64,000 nucleotides of DNA from Candidatus Nomurabacteria bacterium (GTDB lineage Bacteria; Patescibacteriota; Minisyncoccia; Phycocordibacterales; UBA9973): assembly GCA_021413905.1 (NCBI GenBank), contig JAIOPO010000004.1, forward strand, positions 1,597 through 65,596. Reading direction: 5' to 3'. Shown here piece after piece: positions 49,983-54,691 of the stretch. Each line of letters starts with the position of its first letter. Within the stretch, counting starts at the first letter, position 1. The position numbers and the translations under genes were made by a program. A model generated the notes under the pieces. The model searched no databases, had not been told where the DNA came from, and saw nothing but the letters and a program-made list of their open reading frames with translations.

Positions 49983-51758
49983 TTACATAATATCAACAAT
50001 CCTAAGCCTCAGCTCTTCACGACCGCGGAAACGAGATAAATCAAAAGTCGCCAGTAAGTTTACAGACAATCCTTCGGCTAAAGGAATTTTAAAGGAATCT
50101 AAGCCAGAGAAAAATGAAATCGCTGTGGCTTTTTTGTTATTATCGGAAAAAATAATTTCTAGATGTTCTTGTGAATTATTTTTTCCGAATTTTTTCAATT
50201 TTTCTATTTTCACATTTTCAAAAAGAAAAATAGGCTTTGGATTTTCACAACCAAATGGCGCCATTTTTTCTATTTCTTTCCAATTTTTCATATTTACGTC
50301 AGTGAGAGATAATTTTAAATCAAAAAGTGTGGGAGATTGCTTTTCTGTAGCCGAGGACTGTCTGAGCGTAGCGAGTTCCGCAGGCAAAGAAAAAATATCA
50401 CCTGCACTTTTTGCACGAATATTTACAAAAGAACTAGACAAAGCTTCCTCCAAAAAATGCACTTTTTCTGTATGCACTGTAAATCCTCCCGCGCCTTCGT
50501 GCCCGCCAAATTCCAAGAAATACTCACGTGTTTCTGTCATCAACTCAACAACAGACACTGAGCCATCTGACCGACAAGAACCTTTTATAAAATCATTCTC
50601 ATCTTTACCCCACACAAACACGGGCTTTTTATGTTCATCACAAATCTTACCCGCAACAAGACCGAGCACACCCACTTTCCATTCCGGATGCCCTATAACT
50701 ATCACTTCGTTCATTTCACGTTTCTCGAATTTTTTATTCACATCTTTCATAATACCAGCAACCATTTTTTTTCTTTCGTCATTTATTTTCGTCAAATGAT
50801 TTGCCAAAATTCCTGCCTCCGTTTCATCTTGCGTTGCCAACAATTCAAAAGCTCGGCGCGGATCATCCATACGCGATGCAGCATTAAGTCGAGGCGTCAC
50901 CATAAAACCAATATCGTCTTCAGAAATATATTTCTGATCTATGCTCATCTTTGCCAAAAGTTTTTGCAAACCCGGACGCGGAGATTTCCTAAAAACTTTC
51001 AAACCAAAATATGCAATCACTCTATTTTCTCCCAACAACGGCACCATGTCAGAAAGTGTCGCTAGCCCCGCCATATCAAGCAACCATTTCTCCCAAGAGA
51101 GAGGCGCGGGTATTGTGTTTTCTGTAGCCGAGGACTGTCTGAGCGTAGCGAGTTCCGCAGGCAAAGGAAACACAATACCCGCGCCTCCATACTTCTTCAA
51201 AAAACCTTGCACCAATTTAAAAACAACCCCAGACCCACATAACATTTTTTCCGAATATTCGTCTACTTTCGGATTCAAAATAGCATACGCTCGCGGAAGC
51301 TCTGCGTGCGGAATATGGTGATCTGTAATTATAACATCAATGCCGTACACAATAGCTTGAGCTACTTCTGCCACAGCTGTGATGCCTAAATCAATCGTGA
51401 TTAAAAGCTTCACACCGTCTGCGTCCATTTTTTTTACCATTTCCAAATTCAAACCATATCCTTCAGAATTTCTTTGCGGAATATATACTTCAAAATTTTT
51501 ATAATTTAATTTATTAAAAAAGTCATTCAATATCACCGCGCCTGGAATGCCGTCGCAATCATAATCCGCATATACCAATATTTTTTCTCCAGCTTCCATC
51601 GCTTCAAAAATCCGCACGCAAGCTTTTTCCATATCGCGCATTAAAAAAGGATCGTGCATATCGCGTTCATAATTTGGATTTAGGAAAATCTCTTTTTGCT
51701 CGGCTGTTGTAATGCCTCGTTTTTCCAATAATTCATTTAATAGGCTACTTGGTTGCAT
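49983..51758 (-). CDS. recJ: Single-stranded-DNA-specific exonuclease RecJ
   Basis: It has DHH motifs (YADYDCDG, ITIDLGI, ITDHH) and the DHHA1 motif GGHEGAGG. I prefer the start at MQPSSLLNELLEKRGI (51758). The ORF-track extension to 51908 would run across the HIT gene start. Confidence 0.9.
   Translation of the reverse strand: MQPSSLLNELLEKRGITTAEQKEIFLNPNYERDMHDPFLMRDMEKACVRIFEAMEAGEKILVYADYDCDGIPGAVILNDFFNKLNYKNFEVYIPQRNSEGYGLNLEMVKKMDADGVKLLITIDLGITAVAEVAQAIVYGIDVIITDHHIPHAELPRAYAILNPKVDEYSEKMLCGSGVVFKLVQGFLKKYGGAGIVFPLPAELATLRQSSATENTIPAPLSWEKWLLDMAGLATLSDMVPLLGENRVIAYFGLKVFRKSPRPGLQKLLAKMSIDQKYISEDDIGFMVTPRLNAASRMDDPRRAFELLATQDETEAGILANHLTKINDERKKMVAGIMKDVNKKFEKREMNEVIVIGHPEWKVGVLGLVAGKICDEHKKPVFVWGKDENDFIKGSCRSDGSVSVVELMTETREYFLEFGGHEGAGGFTVHTEKVHFLEEALSSSFVNIRAKSAGDIFSLPAELATLRQSSATEKQSPTLFDLKLSLTDVNMKNWKEIEKMAPFGCENPKPIFLFENVKIEKLKKFGKNNSQEHLEIIFSDNNKKATAISFFSGLDSFKIPLAEGLSVNLLATFDLSRFRGREELRLRIVDIM
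50321..50413 (-). repeat. In-frame GC-rich hairpin element inside recJ, copy A (93 bp)
   Basis: It shares a 49-bp core (50341-50389, ttttctgtagccgaggactgtctgagcgtagcgagttccgcaggcaaag) with copy B. The core is flanked by imperfect inverted arms whose outer 9 bp pair perfectly (caaaaagtg / cactttttg). Confidence 0.8.
51101..51187 (-). repeat. In-frame GC-rich hairpin element inside recJ, copy B (87 bp)
   Basis: It carries the same 49-bp core (51118-51166). The core is flanked by a perfect 20-bp inverted repeat: gaggcgcgggtattgtgttt (51101-20) and aaacacaatacccgcgcctc (51168-87). Confidence 0.85.
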
Positions 51759-51794
51759 AAAGACAATTTTAACACAGTTTGATATAATATTGAT

Positions 51795-52205
51795 ATGGAA
51801 GAGTGTATATTTTGTAAAATAATAAAAGGGCAAATCCCTAGCACGAAAATTTATGAGGATGATAAAACCCTCGCCTTTTTGGATATTGCGCCAGTAAACA
51901 TCGGGCACGCTTTAATAATACCTAAAGAACATTATGCAAATATATATGAAACTCCGGAAGACACTATGTCAGACATAATAAAAGTAGCTAAAAAAATATC
52001 TCTCGCTGTGAAAGAAGCAGTAAAAGCAGAAGGAGTAAATATTACAATGAACAATAACCACGCTGCCGGGCAAGTAATATTCCATTCACACATTCACGTC
52101 ATCCCCCGTTTCTCAAACGATGGCTTTGAACTCTGGCACGGTAAAAGAGCATACGAAGATGACGAAATGAAATCTGTTGCTGAAAATATTACTTCAAAGC
52201 TTTAA
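51795..52205 (+). CDS. HIT-family nucleotide hydrolase/transferase
   Basis: It has CIFCKII and the histidine triad HSHIHVIP. Confidence 0.9.
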   Translation: MEECIFCKIIKGQIPSTKIYEDDKTLAFLDIAPVNIGHALIIPKEHYANIYETPEDTMSDIIKVAKKISLAVKEAVKAEGVNITMNNNHAAGQVIFHSHIHVIPRFSNDGFELWHGKRAYEDDEMKSVAENITSKL

Positions 52206-53232
52206 TTAAATTTTTATCATTAAAAAATTTAGAAAGTTTATACCCCCTACAATGAGACAAAATTCCTAAATAAGAAAACTTTGACTCTTTGAATAAATTT
52301 TGTTTCACTTTTCGTAAAATTCTTTTTTTAGTGGAAGTTCGCAAAACTTTATAATGTGTAAGAACTACATAACCAAGAAAATCCACTCCTTGCGATACTT
52401 TTCTAATTTCAACTTTTTTGGGATGTAATTTTAATTTAAGTTTCTCTTCTAAAAATTCGGAAATTTTTGGTAAAAGTAATTCAAGAAAATATTTATCTTT
52501 TGAAACGCACACGAAATCGTCACAATATCTTGCATAATATTTTACTTTTAAAACATGTTTCATAAACTGATCAAAAACATTCATATAAACATTTGCAAAA
52601 AGTTGACTTGTCACATTACCAAGAGGAAGACCTTTGCCTTCTAATTTTTCAAAACTTTTTATAATATTTTCTAAAAGCCATTTGGTTTCCAAGCACTCAA
52701 TTTTTTCAAAAAGAATTTTCTTTAAAATTTCGTGATCTATTGAATCAAAAAATTTAGAAATATCACACTTTAATACCCAAGCATTATTTTTATAATTTTT
52801 TGTTTCTTTTCTTAAAAAACTTTCAAGACGCTCAACTCCCGCGTGAGTGCCTTTATTAAATCGGCAAGCATAAGAATCATAAATAAAAGATGGATCATAA
52901 ATTTTATAAAGTTGGCGAAAAACAGCTTGATGCACTACCCTGTCTCGAACCTGTGCTTTGTGTATATGTCTTATTTTGGGGTCGCAAACATAAAAAGGCA
53001 CATATGGCTCATTTATATATGTTTTTCTTCGTAGAGAAAAATGAATATCCAAGATATTTTTTTCTAAATTAAATTCAAATTTCTGTATATCAGTTTTTTT
53101 ATTTTTTCCACGACGAAACTCTCGCCACGCAGACAAAAGATTGGAAGTGGAAATAATATGATAGAATAAATCACTATGATGACCCCCCCACTTACTTCCA
53201 ATAAAATTATCGAGCTCCCTGTTATTCTCCAT
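52189..53232 (-). CDS. Diversity-generating retroelement reverse transcriptase
   Basis: RT motifs present include VRDRVVHQAV, SYACRFNKGTHAG and KCDISKFFDSIDH. It also has the DGR-diagnostic LPLGNVTSQLFANVY ([ILV]GxxxSQ) and YARYCDDFV (YxDD). A TR/VR pair lies adjacent. Confidence 0.9.
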   Translation of the reverse strand: MENNRELDNFIGSKWGGHHSDLFYHIISTSNLLSAWREFRRGKNKKTDIQKFEFNLEKNILDIHFSLRRKTYINEPYVPFYVCDPKIRHIHKAQVRDRVVHQAVFRQLYKIYDPSFIYDSYACRFNKGTHAGVERLESFLRKETKNYKNNAWVLKCDISKFFDSIDHEILKKILFEKIECLETKWLLENIIKSFEKLEGKGLPLGNVTSQLFANVYMNVFDQFMKHVLKVKYYARYCDDFVCVSKDKYFLELLLPKISEFLEEKLKLKLHPKKVEIRKVSQGVDFLGYVVLTHYKVLRTSTKKRILRKVKQNLFKESKFSYLGILSHCRGYKLSKFFNDKNLIKALK

Positions 53233-53562
53233 GTAAAGAGATTATATAAAATAATATATCAATTGGGAATAAAAATGCCGAAACAAAATAAATTGGGCAT
53301 ACATAAAGTGTTGGAAGAAAAAACATTACTAATACTTACTACATTAATTGATTCAGCACTTAGAAGTAGGCAAGACAAAATACAAACTCTAAATCAAGCT
53401 CGTAGAGATATTGAAGTCTTGAAACATCTTATTCGCCTAGAATATGAATTAAATATAATACAAGAGAAATCTTATATAAATTTATCAGCGATGCTTGAAA
53501 ATATCTCTATGATGACAACCGGTTGGATAAAGTCTCTCGGAACACAAAAGCCCCTCTATTGA
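53176..53562 (+). CDS. avd: Avd-like accessory variability determinant (four-helix-bundle protein)
   Basis: LYKIIYQLGIKMPKQNKLGIHKVLEEKTLLILTTLIDSA...LKHLIRLEYELNII...ISMMTTGWIKSL follows the four-helix-bundle/Avd pattern, and helix 1 needs the upstream residues. An extended -10 (TGATAGAAT, 53159-67) lies 8 nt before the ATG at 53176. The alternative start is 53275. The long form overlaps the RT 5' end by 57 nt on the opposite strand. Confidence 0.72.
   Translation: MMTPPLTSNKIIELPVILHVKRLYKIIYQLGIKMPKQNKLGIHKVLEEKTLLILTTLIDSALRSRQDKIQTLNQARRDIEVLKHLIRLEYELNIIQEKSYINLSAMLENISMMTTGWIKSLGTQKPLY
53241..53246 (-). promoter_or_regulatory. -10 box (TATAAT) 8 nt upstream of the RT start codon
   Basis: The minus strand reads ttTATAATctctttacATG. 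There is no SD, so the arrangement looks leaderless. Confidence 0.4.
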
Positions 53563-53865
53563 GGAGCTTTATGAGAAACTTCTGACGGAGACCGTTGTCG
53601 GAATTACGGTTGTCGCGATTGTCGTTGCTGATGTTGAACTGACCATTGTCGTTGCGGTTCATGTTCATCGCGTTACCGTCTGAATCGAGGGCTCTTTCTG
53701 TGAGTGTCCACCAATATCACCACATATCTTTTTCAAAATATGTTGAATTTTCCGGCACTAAAGCCGTCTCTGTTTGGAATCTAAATTCCCTAGACTCTCG
53801 CAGGCAGTTTCTATTGTTTGGCAAACTGTCATCACATTTTTTAAACGGATCAGCTTAACAGCCGA
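53545..53865 (-). ncRNA. Predicted DGR TR-containing RNA (promoter-proximal spacer, TR, 3' hairpin)
   Basis: The upstream bound is the extended -10 at 53870-53878. The downstream bound is the hairpin GCTCCTC-aata-GAGGGGC (53567-53550) followed by TTTT on the minus strand. The transcript limits are inferred, not observed. Confidence 0.45.
53583..53693 (-). repeat. DGR template repeat (TR), 111 bp
   Basis: It aligns colinearly with 53958-54068 at an offset of 375. In the VR reading frame it contains 11 AAY codons (8 AAC, 3 AAT, hand count). Confidence 0.88.
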
Positions 53866-53869
53866 GTTA

Positions 53870-53878
53870 ATTATAACA
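53870..53878 (-). promoter_or_regulatory. Extended -10 promoter (TGTTATAAT) for the TR RNA
   Basis: On the minus strand, ttTGtTATAATtaac follows the target-gene terminator directly. Confidence 0.45.
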
Positions 53879-53885
53879 AAATTGT

Positions 53886-53926
53886 AAAAAAAAGTTCCCC
53901 TTGAATTAAAAAATCCAAAGGGAACA
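53886..53926 (-). terminator. Rho-independent terminator of the DGR target gene
   Basis: Minus-strand hairpin GTTCCCTTTGG-attttttaatt-CAAGGGGAAC followed by TTTTTTTT. It may also serve as the hairpin that DGR homing often needs just 3' of the VR. Confidence 0.7.
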
Positions 53927-53944: not shown

Positions 53945-54691
53945 TTAGAAACCTACTTGACGGAGACCGTGGTCGGAAAGACGGCCGCCGCGATGGCCGC
54001 TGCCGATGTAGAACTGACCATAGTCGCGGCGGATCATGAACATCGCGTGCCCGCCTGAATCGAGGGCTGCAAAACGTGTGAGTCCTTTGACATCATACAT
54101 TTTACTAGTCTCAGTCCGATGACGAAAAGCGGCGATGATGCCTTCTTTCGGCACCATAAACTTGGTGCCGGCTTCGATACCGTCATCATAGCTTTTGCCT
54201 AGCATGTCGGGCTCGTCTCCGCCGACGTGGCACATGGGATAGTCGCCTTCGGGGCGCGCTTGCTGTTCGCGAATTGCATCGGTGATGCTGTCGTAATATT
54301 TCCATACAGCATCCTTTCCGAACTTTTTCGCATAGGCTTCAAGTGCCTGATCCTCGGTGATGTCGGAAAAAATAACCTCAAGGCGAGACATTTTTTCAGT
54401 TTTCACCGGCAAAGAAAGTTTCGTCCAGTCAACCTGACGGTTGAAGAATTTTTTGTAAAATATTTCTATCTTACGTTTTTCTTCAGTCCAGTGGTCAACT
54501 TTTACACCGAGAACTTCTTCGCAGAATTTCTCGGTCAGTTCTTCAAGCTCTTTTTTGTCACTCAAGACAAAGTGTTGCGCTTGGTCAAAACTGAAACCTC
54601 CATCGCCCAGCACACGAATAATGGTGCCGGCAATTTTAAAACCAATTGCAGACAACTGCCCCGTGGTTGCGGGTTTTTGCTGATTTGTCAT
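53945..54691 (-). CDS. DGR target (variable) protein, 248 aa, C-terminal VR
   Basis: It contains the VR in its last roughly 41 codons (...ALDSGGHAMFMIRRDYGQFYIGSGHRGGRLSDHGLRQVGF*). A strong SD (AAAGGAGGAGTCTT-ATG) precedes the start. Its GC content and codon usage differ sharply from those of its neighbours. Confidence 0.88.
   Translation of the reverse strand: MTNQQKPATTGQLSAIGFKIAGTIIRVLGDGGFSFDQAQHFVLSDKKELEELTEKFCEEVLGVKVDHWTEEKRKIEIFYKKFFNRQVDWTKLSLPVKTEKMSRLEVIFSDITEDQALEAYAKKFGKDAVWKYYDSITDAIREQQARPEGDYPMCHVGGDEPDMLGKSYDDGIEAGTKFMVPKEGIIAAFRHRTETSKMYDVKGLTRFAALDSGGHAMFMIRRDYGQFYIGSGHRGGRLSDHGLRQVGF
53958..54068 (-). repeat. DGR variable repeat (VR), 111 bp
   Basis: It has 20 hand-counted mismatches to the TR. 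Nineteen are at TR adenines (coding/minus strand) and one is at a TR thymine. It ends 10 nt before the stop codon. Confidence 0.88.

Follow-up and report, generated by a model that had tools for sequence, protein, structure and literature searches.

Organization of the locus

We analyzed a 64,000-nucleotide (nt) stretch of DNA from a Candidatus Nomurabacteria bacterium (GenBank assembly GCA_021413905.1, contig JAIOPO010000004.1, positions 1,597 to 65,596 of the forward strand), hereafter referred to as the window, the minus strand of which carries a complete diversity-generating retroelement (DGR). The locus was assigned to this class of elements because an adenine-biased pair of a template repeat (TR) and a variable repeat (VR) is present together with genes for a reverse transcriptase (RT) and for a homologue of the accessory variability determinant, Avd. 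This report concerns the RNA that carries the TR and the candidate gene from which it would be transcribed. The components of the element lie at the following window positions.

53945-54691, minus strand: DGR target gene, 248 amino acids, with the VR at its 3' end
54068-53958, minus strand: VR, inside the 3' end of the target open reading frame (ORF)
53583-53693, minus strand: TR, 111 nt with 36 adenines, from repeat comparison with the VR
53176-53562, plus strand: avd, 128 amino acids, from profile matches
52189-53232, minus strand: DGR reverse transcriptase, 347 amino acids, containing LPLGNVTSQ (RVT_1, E 1.9e-25)

The TR and VR are 82% identical over 111 nt, and 19 of their 20 mismatches fall at TR adenines. 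Differences almost entirely confined to TR adenines and a VR at the 3' end of the target ORF, 11 nt from the target stop codon, are the arrangement of a DGR. The sole difference at a non-adenine position (T in the TR at 53675, G in the VR at 54050) lies beside an adenine position. A search of the window for a second VR matching this TR returned none, and the 248-residue target protein had no Pfam or NCBIfam match. The motif [LIV]GxxxSQ of DGR-type RTs reads LPLGNVTSQ in the window RT, the closest relatives of which are RTs encoded beside TR/VR pairs and Avd genes.

Related loci were collected from two sources. A genome scan with the RT returned ten loci, nine from Patescibacteria metagenome-assembled genomes and one from a Bacteroidales metagenome-assembled genome, with RT identities of up to 81%; a metagenome scan with the RT alignment added 80 loci on contigs of unassigned taxonomy, with 46-56% RT identity. 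The comparison set thus comprised 90 Patescibacteria or metagenome loci spanning 46-81% RT identity. Statistics on the leader RNA described below refer to the 35 loci in which it was detected by a covariance model, and a set of five loci served as the close set.

The 128-residue ORF matched NCBIfam DivGenRetAVD (E 4.1e-12, the full profile being covered at positions 1-104) with 46.3 bits against a curated cut-off of 80, and Pfam bAvd (E 2.9e-8) with 34.6 bits against a cut-off of 40. Although both scores fall below the curated thresholds, the ORF is very likely Avd, the family being consistent over 68 loci. Homologues from all 68 of these sources lie on the strand opposite the RT and directly upstream of it, and an antisense avd was present in 50 of the 52 loci with enough sequence upstream of the RT. 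With avd on the plus strand between the TR (53693-53583, minus strand) and the RT gene (53232-52189, minus strand), the cassette fits the B3 definition of Wu et al. 2018 (PMC5758913), that is, TR-(avd)-RT with avd on the reverse strand. According to these authors, this architecture accounts for 90% of their set from the candidate phyla radiation (CPR) and requires at least two transcription units.

The interval of ~340 nt between the TR and the RT gene is thus occupied by avd on the opposite strand, a gene overlooked in the preliminary description of this DNA. avd converges on the TR unit, its stop codon falling in the loop of the hairpin that follows the TR, so that any transcript reading through from the TR into the RT gene would be antisense to avd, which argues for a separate TR transcript. 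At the other end, the starts of avd and of the RT gene overlap head-to-head by 57 nt (53176-53232); each promoter must therefore be located in the other gene's coding sequence, and the 5' ends of the two mRNAs would be complementary. The head-to-head overlap is kept in the closest relatives, with the exception of locus L004, in which the start codons are 4 nt apart and do not overlap.

The TATAAT located 8 nt before the RT ATG (53246-53241, ATG at 53232), which had been put forward as belonging to the RT gene, was verified at that position on the minus strand. It lies inside the avd coding sequence, and is conserved yet doubles as Avd codons on the other strand. The putative ATG itself (53230-53232) is in the RT frame only in the window and in L001, the conserved ATGGAG being out of frame in three of the four closest relatives (L002, L003 and L010). 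The RT frame has a later ATG in L002 and no canonical start nearby in the other two; a non-canonical start, a frameshift or assembly errors could account for this situation.

Predicted signals delimiting the template RNA

Read on the minus strand, the region between the target gene and avd displays, in order, the following elements.

53886-53925, minus strand: hairpin of 14 pairs (53894-53925) followed by T8, after the target gene (terminator scan)
53870-53878, minus strand: extended -10 element TGTTATAAT, a perfect TGnTATAAT (direct reading)
53865-53694, minus strand: leader ("5' spacer"), 172 nt, the interval before the TR
53574-53582, minus strand: 3' flank of the TR, GA-AGUUUCU, in which AGUUUCU (53580-53574) is the proposed template-side strand
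53541-53570, minus strand: 3' hairpin, core 53567-53550, extended 53570-53547, followed by UUUUGUGUU (direct reading and comparison)

The hairpin at 53925-53894 is followed by TTTTTTTT and was the sole minus-strand terminator reported by the scan. Stem and T8 run together have the composition of an intrinsic terminator, and 53886-53925 reads as that of the target gene. The five closest loci carry a hairpin and T-run at the same site with unrelated stem sequences. By analogy with phage BPP-1 of Bordetella, the homing of which requires a hairpin 4-34 bp downstream of the VR (PMC3240598), the same structure may also be the target-site hairpin of the DGR, since the distance of 32 bp from the VR end to its start falls within this range.

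Immediately downstream, TGTTATAAT (53878-53870) comes without a usable -35 element, for which reason it is missing from the list of a two-hexamer promoter scan. Transcription is predicted to start at the G at ~53863, ~7 nt past the extended -10 box. Nearly all of the 35 leader-bearing loci show a -10-like hexamer 6-7 nt upstream of the leader 5' end, which begins with a conserved GG or, in one subgroup, with GAGU; these hexamers are mostly TATAAT, TATACT or TACAAT and are preceded by TGn in 17 of the 35 loci, against a background frequency of -10-like hexamers of 0.53% per position.

At the other end of the TR, the hairpin GCTCCTC-aata-GAGGGGC (53567-53550) lies 14 nt after the end of the TR/VR homology. 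It has seven pairs, one of them G-U, or ten if AAA/UUU is included, and is followed by UUUUGUGUU. Compensatory changes affect the stem in the five close loci (GCUCCUC/GAGGGGC, GCCCUU/AAGGGC and GCCCUUGC/GCAGGGGC). Most of the 35 loci have a hairpin of 6-12 bp and a UUUUGU-type run at most ~15 nt from the end of the TR/VR homology, although this census of terminators is approximate, the perfect-stem hairpin finder having missed or misplaced several hairpins. The order found in leader-bearing loci is thus target-gene hairpin and T-run, -10 box, leader, TR, short flank, and hairpin with U-run.

In three loci (L022, L030 and L049), the leader, TR, hairpin and U-run lie 170-210 nt upstream of the RT, and avd was not detected in the stored flanks. 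Since the 3' hairpin and U-run are kept in these loci, in which no avd occupies the opposite strand, the hairpin is not merely a by-product of avd coding; nor is the upstream leader strictly tied to an antisense avd.

Counted in the single sequence, promoter-like sites (11, versus 8.6 +/- 3.2 in shuffles) and terminator-like sites (4, versus 1.7 +/- 1.2) were not above chance in this AT-rich DNA. The significance of the motifs comes instead from their conserved position across related loci. The preliminary description had placed a terminator after the target gene (53926-53886), a perfect extended -10 at 53878-53870 and a 7-bp hairpin with a short T run at 53567-53550, and had deduced from them a discrete TR RNA of ~320 nt. 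All three elements were found as described, and the discrete RNA gained in credibility from the conservation of their positions at ~50% RT identity and from the antisense orientation of avd. The covariation anticipated for the hairpin at 53550-53567 is likewise seen in the compensatory stem changes of the close loci.

A conserved, folded leader upstream of the template repeat

The leader comprises the following parts.

53820-53863, minus strand: P1 hairpin at the RNA 5' end (GGCUGUUAAGCUGAUCC...GUGAUGACAGUUUGCC), from the RNAalifold consensus and compensatory pairs
53806-53812, minus strand: proposed primer strand, AGAAACU, the complement of AGUUUCU in the 3' flank of the TR
53804-53805, minus strand: 2-nt GC linker between the primer strand and P3 (sequence reading)
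53698-53803, minus strand: P3 domain, with a 12-bp closing helix (53803-53792 with 53709-53698)
53790-53776, minus strand: P3a hairpin, then AAAC, within P3
53766-53753, minus strand: P3b hairpin, within P3
53743-53722, minus strand: P3c hairpin, within P3
53721-53709, minus strand: conserved single-stranded GGUGAUAUUGGUG motif, within P3

Folding of the five close loci with RNAalifold yielded the P1 hairpin and the 12-bp P3 helix enclosing three hairpins. A gap of 4 nt separates the 3' strand of P3 from the TR, and the adenosines that follow P3a are conserved throughout the leader family. Across the 35 loci, helices 1 and 2 (P1) are 91-93% paired and P3 is 96% paired, with changes on both sides in 11 of its 12 pairs. 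For the structure as a whole, 92.1% of the alignment cells form pairs, versus 58.9% in shuffled controls and 39-48% with slid partners, and 43 of the 44 pairs show changes on both sides. The RNA of 323 nt predicted for the window folds with an energy of -90.1 kcal/mol (z = -2.9).

A covariance model built from the five close loci matched in 35 sources. Each match shares its strand with the RT, and in loci with an intervening avd, 470-630 nt separate the end of the leader from the RT match downstream. Using nhmmer, the leader was found in 40 of the 52 loci with at least 800 nt upstream of the RT; an unfiltered model search added nine weaker matches at the expected place, mostly among the same 52 loci. 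No Rfam 15 entry matched the window between 52000 and 55000 at E <= 1, and none matched at the leader in eight related loci. A coding role was ruled out, no open frame being common to the five close loci. The leader is thus the best-conserved structured part of the DGR locus and a new, well-supported structured RNA family absent from Rfam. The preliminary description had noticed a spacer of ~170 nt at this place (172 nt at 53865-53694 by our measurement) without assigning it a function, and had named covariation as the test to apply; with heavy covariation across 35 loci, this spacer turns out to be a conserved folded RNA.

Several further observations were made on this RNA. A weak match to the 3' half of the leader in L050 (1535-1588, minus strand) lies opposite the RT strand and downstream of the RT on a 1.6-kb contig, where it may belong to a second cassette or to a different arrangement. 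Distant relatives (L072, L046, L078, L011, L004 and others) have a longer leader with an extra 5' domain, located ~130 nt upstream of the primer strand and consisting of two hairpins with an ACGGUU-like motif in their loops and showing compensatory changes in 21 of 29 predicted pairs; P1 of the window appears to be homologous to the first hairpin of this domain. In L011, a LOOT RNA (RF03000, 74 bits, above the gathering score) occupies 309-433 on the minus strand, ~1.3 kb upstream of the leader and on the other strand. A pairing of leader GAGACGG with CCGUC of the TR, suggested by eye, was ruled out, the leader side varying in L001 and L010 while the TR is constant.

The 3' strand of P1 (53820-53835) resembles the template-side strand (AGUUU), and its CAGUUU can pair either with AAGCUG, as in P1, or with AAACUG in the primer strand (53806-53812). 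This alternative pairing could constitute a conformational switch that hides the primer strand, although it is not conserved in L013.

Predicted pairing of the leader with the 3' flank of the template repeat

The heptamer AGUUUCU (53580-53574), which begins two bases past the end of the TR/VR homology, pairs with AGAAACU (53812-53806) of the leader in both the RNAalifold consensus and the single-sequence minimum free energy fold. The duplex has seven of seven pairs in all five close loci. In distant loci, the leader and flank strands change together (GAUGGAA/UUCCAUC, AUAUGC/GCAUAU, AAACA/UGUUU, GAAGU/ACUUC, AAUAAAAA/UUUUUAUU and AAAUGAAGA/UCUUCAUUU).

The pairing was evaluated by sliding the 13 nt before the linker, ungapped, along 60 nt around the TR end (~47 possible registers per locus). 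In 23 of the 35 loci, the best register coincided with an anchor derived solely from the flank. When primers of 18 distinct types were swapped between loci, with the register optimized equally for own and swapped pairings, own combinations formed 9.47 pairs and swapped ones 8.30 +/- 0.20 (0 of 20,000 permutations). In an ungapped alignment made independently of the primer, 70.2% of positions were paired, versus 58.5 +/- 1.4% after shuffling (0 of 500) and 36-48% when slid, and the covariation score of the duplex was 0.281 versus 0.140. Two adenosines, the one preceding the duplex and the first one inside it, were invariant in 32 of 32 loci. An energy-based test with RNAduplex, in which A-rich primers also pair with U-runs, was weak for individual loci and only weakly significant overall, significance being reached in the permutation across loci (p ~0.001). 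Were the leader strand to act as primer, the first base copied would be the A at 53581.

Downstream of the TR, the antisense-avd region gave no pairs when 14 diverse loci were folded with RNAalifold, and a GAGAC/GUCUC complementarity seen there by eye in the window was ruled out, as it is not conserved in relatives. The suggestion that the 3' hairpin serves as the self-priming element gained no support and is unlikely, since it is the 5' leader that contains the flank's pairing partner, together with the GC linker and the putative stop helix.

A proposed circularly permuted DGR RNA

The DGR RNA of BPP-1, consisting of the 3' end of avd, the TR and the Spacer (Sp), was defined biochemically (PMC6182149) and by cryo-electron microscopy (cryo-EM; bioRxiv 10.1101/2023.10.23.563531), and the positions of its elements were checked here on the BPP-1 sequence. 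According to the latter study, by Handa et al., cDNA synthesis needs 20 nt upstream of the TR and the 140-nt Spacer downstream of it. Sp47-56 pairs with TR118-129 and priming occurs from A56, while G57-C58 joins the primer duplex to the cPRT-Stop, in which Sp59-70 pairs with avd369-379 just upstream of the TR. The stop strand is followed by a small stem-loop, A80/A81, the single-stranded Thumb Ring and a long RT-binding stem-loop, and an Avd-binding stem-loop lies just after the TR (bioRxiv 10.1101/2023.10.23.563531).

We propose, with a probability of about 0.6, that the non-coding DGR RNA of this Patescibacteria element of type B3 has a gene of its own at 53878-53541 on the minus strand, and that its leader takes over the function of the Spacer from a position upstream of the TR. 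Transcription would start at the G located ~7 nt after the extended -10 and proceed to the hairpin and U-run, yielding an RNA of ~320 nt, while the RT and the antisense avd would be expressed separately. The leader would act as a folded scaffold equivalent to the Bordetella Spacer but placed upstream rather than downstream of the template, so that the RNA would most simply be described as circularly permuted relative to that of the phage, the Spacer having shifted from downstream of the TR to upstream of the stop strand, and would have a retron-like topology. The AGAAACU primer strand would pair with AGUUUCU after the TR and thereby set the start of cDNA synthesis, priming being provided by a 2'-OH where the primer strand ends; reverse transcription would stop at the 3' strand of the P3 helix, 4 nt before the TR; and elements inside P3 (the hairpin with its adenosines, the other hairpins and the single strands) would dock the RT. 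The 3' hairpin would end the transcript and perhaps also be an Avd-binding stem-loop, a role as terminator and/or Avd-binding structure being more likely for it than one as primer. We consider the odds roughly even that the CPR/Patescibacteria DGR clade as a whole relies on such a circularly permuted RNA, with the whole Spacer function 5' of the template, a compact 320-450-nt unit delimited by a dedicated promoter and terminator, and cDNA primed from the leader.

A number of points weigh against this proposal. Concerning the transcript, its ends at ~53863 and ~53541 (323 nt) are predicted from sequence, the terminator scan did not report the 3' hairpin, and the U-run that follows this hairpin is interrupted. 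A possible reason for the omission is that the extended stem leaves only four T in the next eight bases. On the opposite strand, the last avd codons coincide with this U-run and with the hairpin's 3' arm, the conservation of which may therefore be partly coding. With regard to the leader, the 35-sequence alignment was fitted to the model and thus favors the structure, although the margin is large; energy-based tests on single loci were mostly not significant; and in about three of the 52 loci the models applied here detected no leader. As for the duplex, it is short and invariant, hence devoid of covariation, in the five closest loci, and in a large group of loci ("group B") C x C and U x C mismatches often occupy the two positions closest to the putative site of priming. 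Finally, the equivalence of the leader to Sp is drawn from anatomy and from the order of the elements.

Alternative explanations

The leader may be real and separately transcribed while the AGAAACU/AGUUUCU duplex only closes or positions the TR, in the manner of retron a1/a2, priming taking place otherwise, whether from the 3'-OH of a nicked RNA, from a different nucleotide or from the target DNA. Structure and covariation, solid as they are, are silent on the chemistry of priming, many loci have mismatches in the pairs closest to the presumed site of priming, and a model of priming from nicked template RNA exists, in the account of PMC5703328, even for the Bordetella element. Against this stand the way in which the primer strand, a GC linker of 2 nt and the 12-bp helix by the TR follow one another, which reproduces the active-site geometry seen by cryo-EM for cis-priming, and the invariant U-A pair that closes the duplex next to an invariant A. 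We hold this explanation to be unlikely.

Clearly less probable is the absence of any discrete TR RNA, the TR being carried by read-through from the target-gene promoter and/or into the RT gene, and the motifs being weak or incidental. Intrinsic terminators are often leaky. Furthermore, the promoter- and terminator-like counts in the single sequence are within chance, the presumed promoter of the TR unit has no -35 element, and the 3' hairpin, with its interrupted U-run, was not flagged by the scan. Yet both hairpin and T-run elements and the -10 box hold their positions over 35 loci while their sequences vary, and the spacing from the -10 box to the GG is fixed at 6-7 nt. Read-through into the RT gene would moreover be fully antisense to avd, and, as stated by Wu et al. 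(PMC5758913), B3 needs two or more transcription units.

The least probable of the three holds the leader to be foreign to the RT machinery, either as an RNA regulating in cis (riboswitch, thermosensor or attenuator) or as a small RNA in its own right, that would control the expression of the TR or of genes nearby. A 5' leader that is structured, conserved and situated right after a promoter would suit such a role, as would, in close relatives, a possible switch between P1 CAGUUU and AAACUG of the primer strand. Yet no terminator/anti-terminator arrangement separates the leader from the TR (the P3 3' strand stopping 4 nt short of it), and the leader forms a covarying pairing with sequence beyond the TR. 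All detected leaders but the weak reverse-strand match in L050 share the strand of a DGR RT and precede it, and in the loci that were inspected closely the leader is continued by a TR-length segment and a conserved 3' flank. The leader, moreover, has no Rfam match, and the order of its elements matches that of Bordetella Sp.

Novelty and implications

The DGR itself and the B3 gene order were already known. The literature searched describes no 5' leader, no permuted DGR RNA and no dedicated promoter or terminator for B3 cassettes, although an earlier mention in the CPR DGR survey of Paul et al. 2017 is possible. The sole survey of RNA elements in other DGRs was confined to 40 nt on the upstream side of the TR and 100 nt on its downstream side and would therefore miss the leader, so that the location of the functional RNA in the commonest CPR cassette type was out of its reach. 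If the leader is the equivalent of the Spacer, the cryo-EM model would generalize in a rearranged form and the puzzling TR-(avd)-RT layout would be simply explained, a permuted RNA accounting for an avd that sits antisense directly after the TR. The template RNA would then be small and self-contained, with clear ends, which would make it directly testable in vitro and maybe useful for engineered targeted mutagenesis. These possibilities should be of interest to specialists of DGRs and retroelements.

Neighboring features

Beyond the RT, a HIT-family gene (51795-52205, plus strand) and the RT gene (ending at 52189, minus strand) overlap tail-to-tail by 17 nt and therefore leave no space for a terminator between them. 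A long ORF at 49983-51908, RecJ-like as judged by eye from its translation alone, contains a 65-nt direct repeat (50341-50405 and 51118-51182, 91% identity) that contributes the peptide LPAELATLRQSSATE two times. The second copy is found inside an inverted repeat with 34-nt arms (51101-51187), and the repeat resembles a small palindromic element inserted in frame.

Comparison with known systems

The putative promoter of the TR unit shares TGnTATAAT and the lack of a -35 element with sigma-70-type extended -10 promoters, Patescibacteria promoter rules being without experimental footing. As in rho-independent terminators, a GC-containing hairpin and a T-run are found after the target gene and again after the TR; the second differs in its interrupted U-run and in its overlap with the stop codon of the oppositely oriented avd (53560-53562). 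Gene order and strands (target, TR, reverse-strand avd, RT) are those of the B3 cassettes of Wu et al. 2018 (PMC5758913), a classification that rests on gene order only, whereas RNA signals and structure are described here as well; no promoter, leader RNA or RNA structure is described in the passages of that study that were searched.

The closest functional counterpart proposed is the BPP-1 RNA. Common to both are a template:primer duplex at the 3' edge of the TR, a 2-nt linker (the GC of the window being identical to Sp G57-C58), an adjacent helix of ~12 bp with its partner strand just upstream of the TR (the cPRT-Stop in the phage), a small stem-loop with adenosines behind it and, next, elements of single-stranded and of long stem-loop type, another stem-loop shortly past the template strand, and an RT with an Avd partner. 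In the window, these correspond to the AGAAACU/AGUUUCU duplex, the GC linker and the adjacent P3 helix ending 4 nt before the TR. The two RNAs differ in that, in the window, a single closed domain 5' of the TR unites the primer strand and linker with the stop strand and the elements presumed to bind the RT, whereas those of BPP-1 lie in the 140-nt Spacer 3' of the TR. Downstream of the window TR, by contrast, there is only the hairpin, then antisense avd without a consensus structure. In addition, the window avd is on the opposite strand and contributes no part of the RNA, which is predicted to have its own promoter and to end right after the TR, and no sequence homology was demonstrated between the two RNAs.

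On this anatomical basis, we propose that the P3 domain is the equivalent of the cPRT-Stop, Thumb-Ring and RT-binding elements. The counterpart of the Avd-binding stem-loop could be either the 3' hairpin, because its position relative to the template strand is that found in the phage, or P1, because the same is true of its position relative to the primer strand. A CAAUAG...GC pattern covers the primer strand and linker in both RNAs (ACAAUAGAAACUGC in the window, 53804-53817; CAAUAGGUGGUCAGC in BPP-1, locus L091, Sp44-58); only UAG and GC are kept in close relatives of the window, and the resemblance is maybe a coincidence.

Retrons, finally, have their RT-recognition RNA 5' of the template, a 5' segment that pairs with the 3' end of the template, and 2'-OH priming (PMC8867640). 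The window element is distinguished from them by an RT assigned to the DGR clade (the retron RT model scoring 69 bits against a cut-off of 235), by having as its template a TR that has a VR counterpart and shows changes specific to adenines, by the presence of Avd and by the lack of an msr-type branching G context. The topology of the window RNA is nevertheless the same as that of retron msr-msd RNA, as an analogy of layout only.

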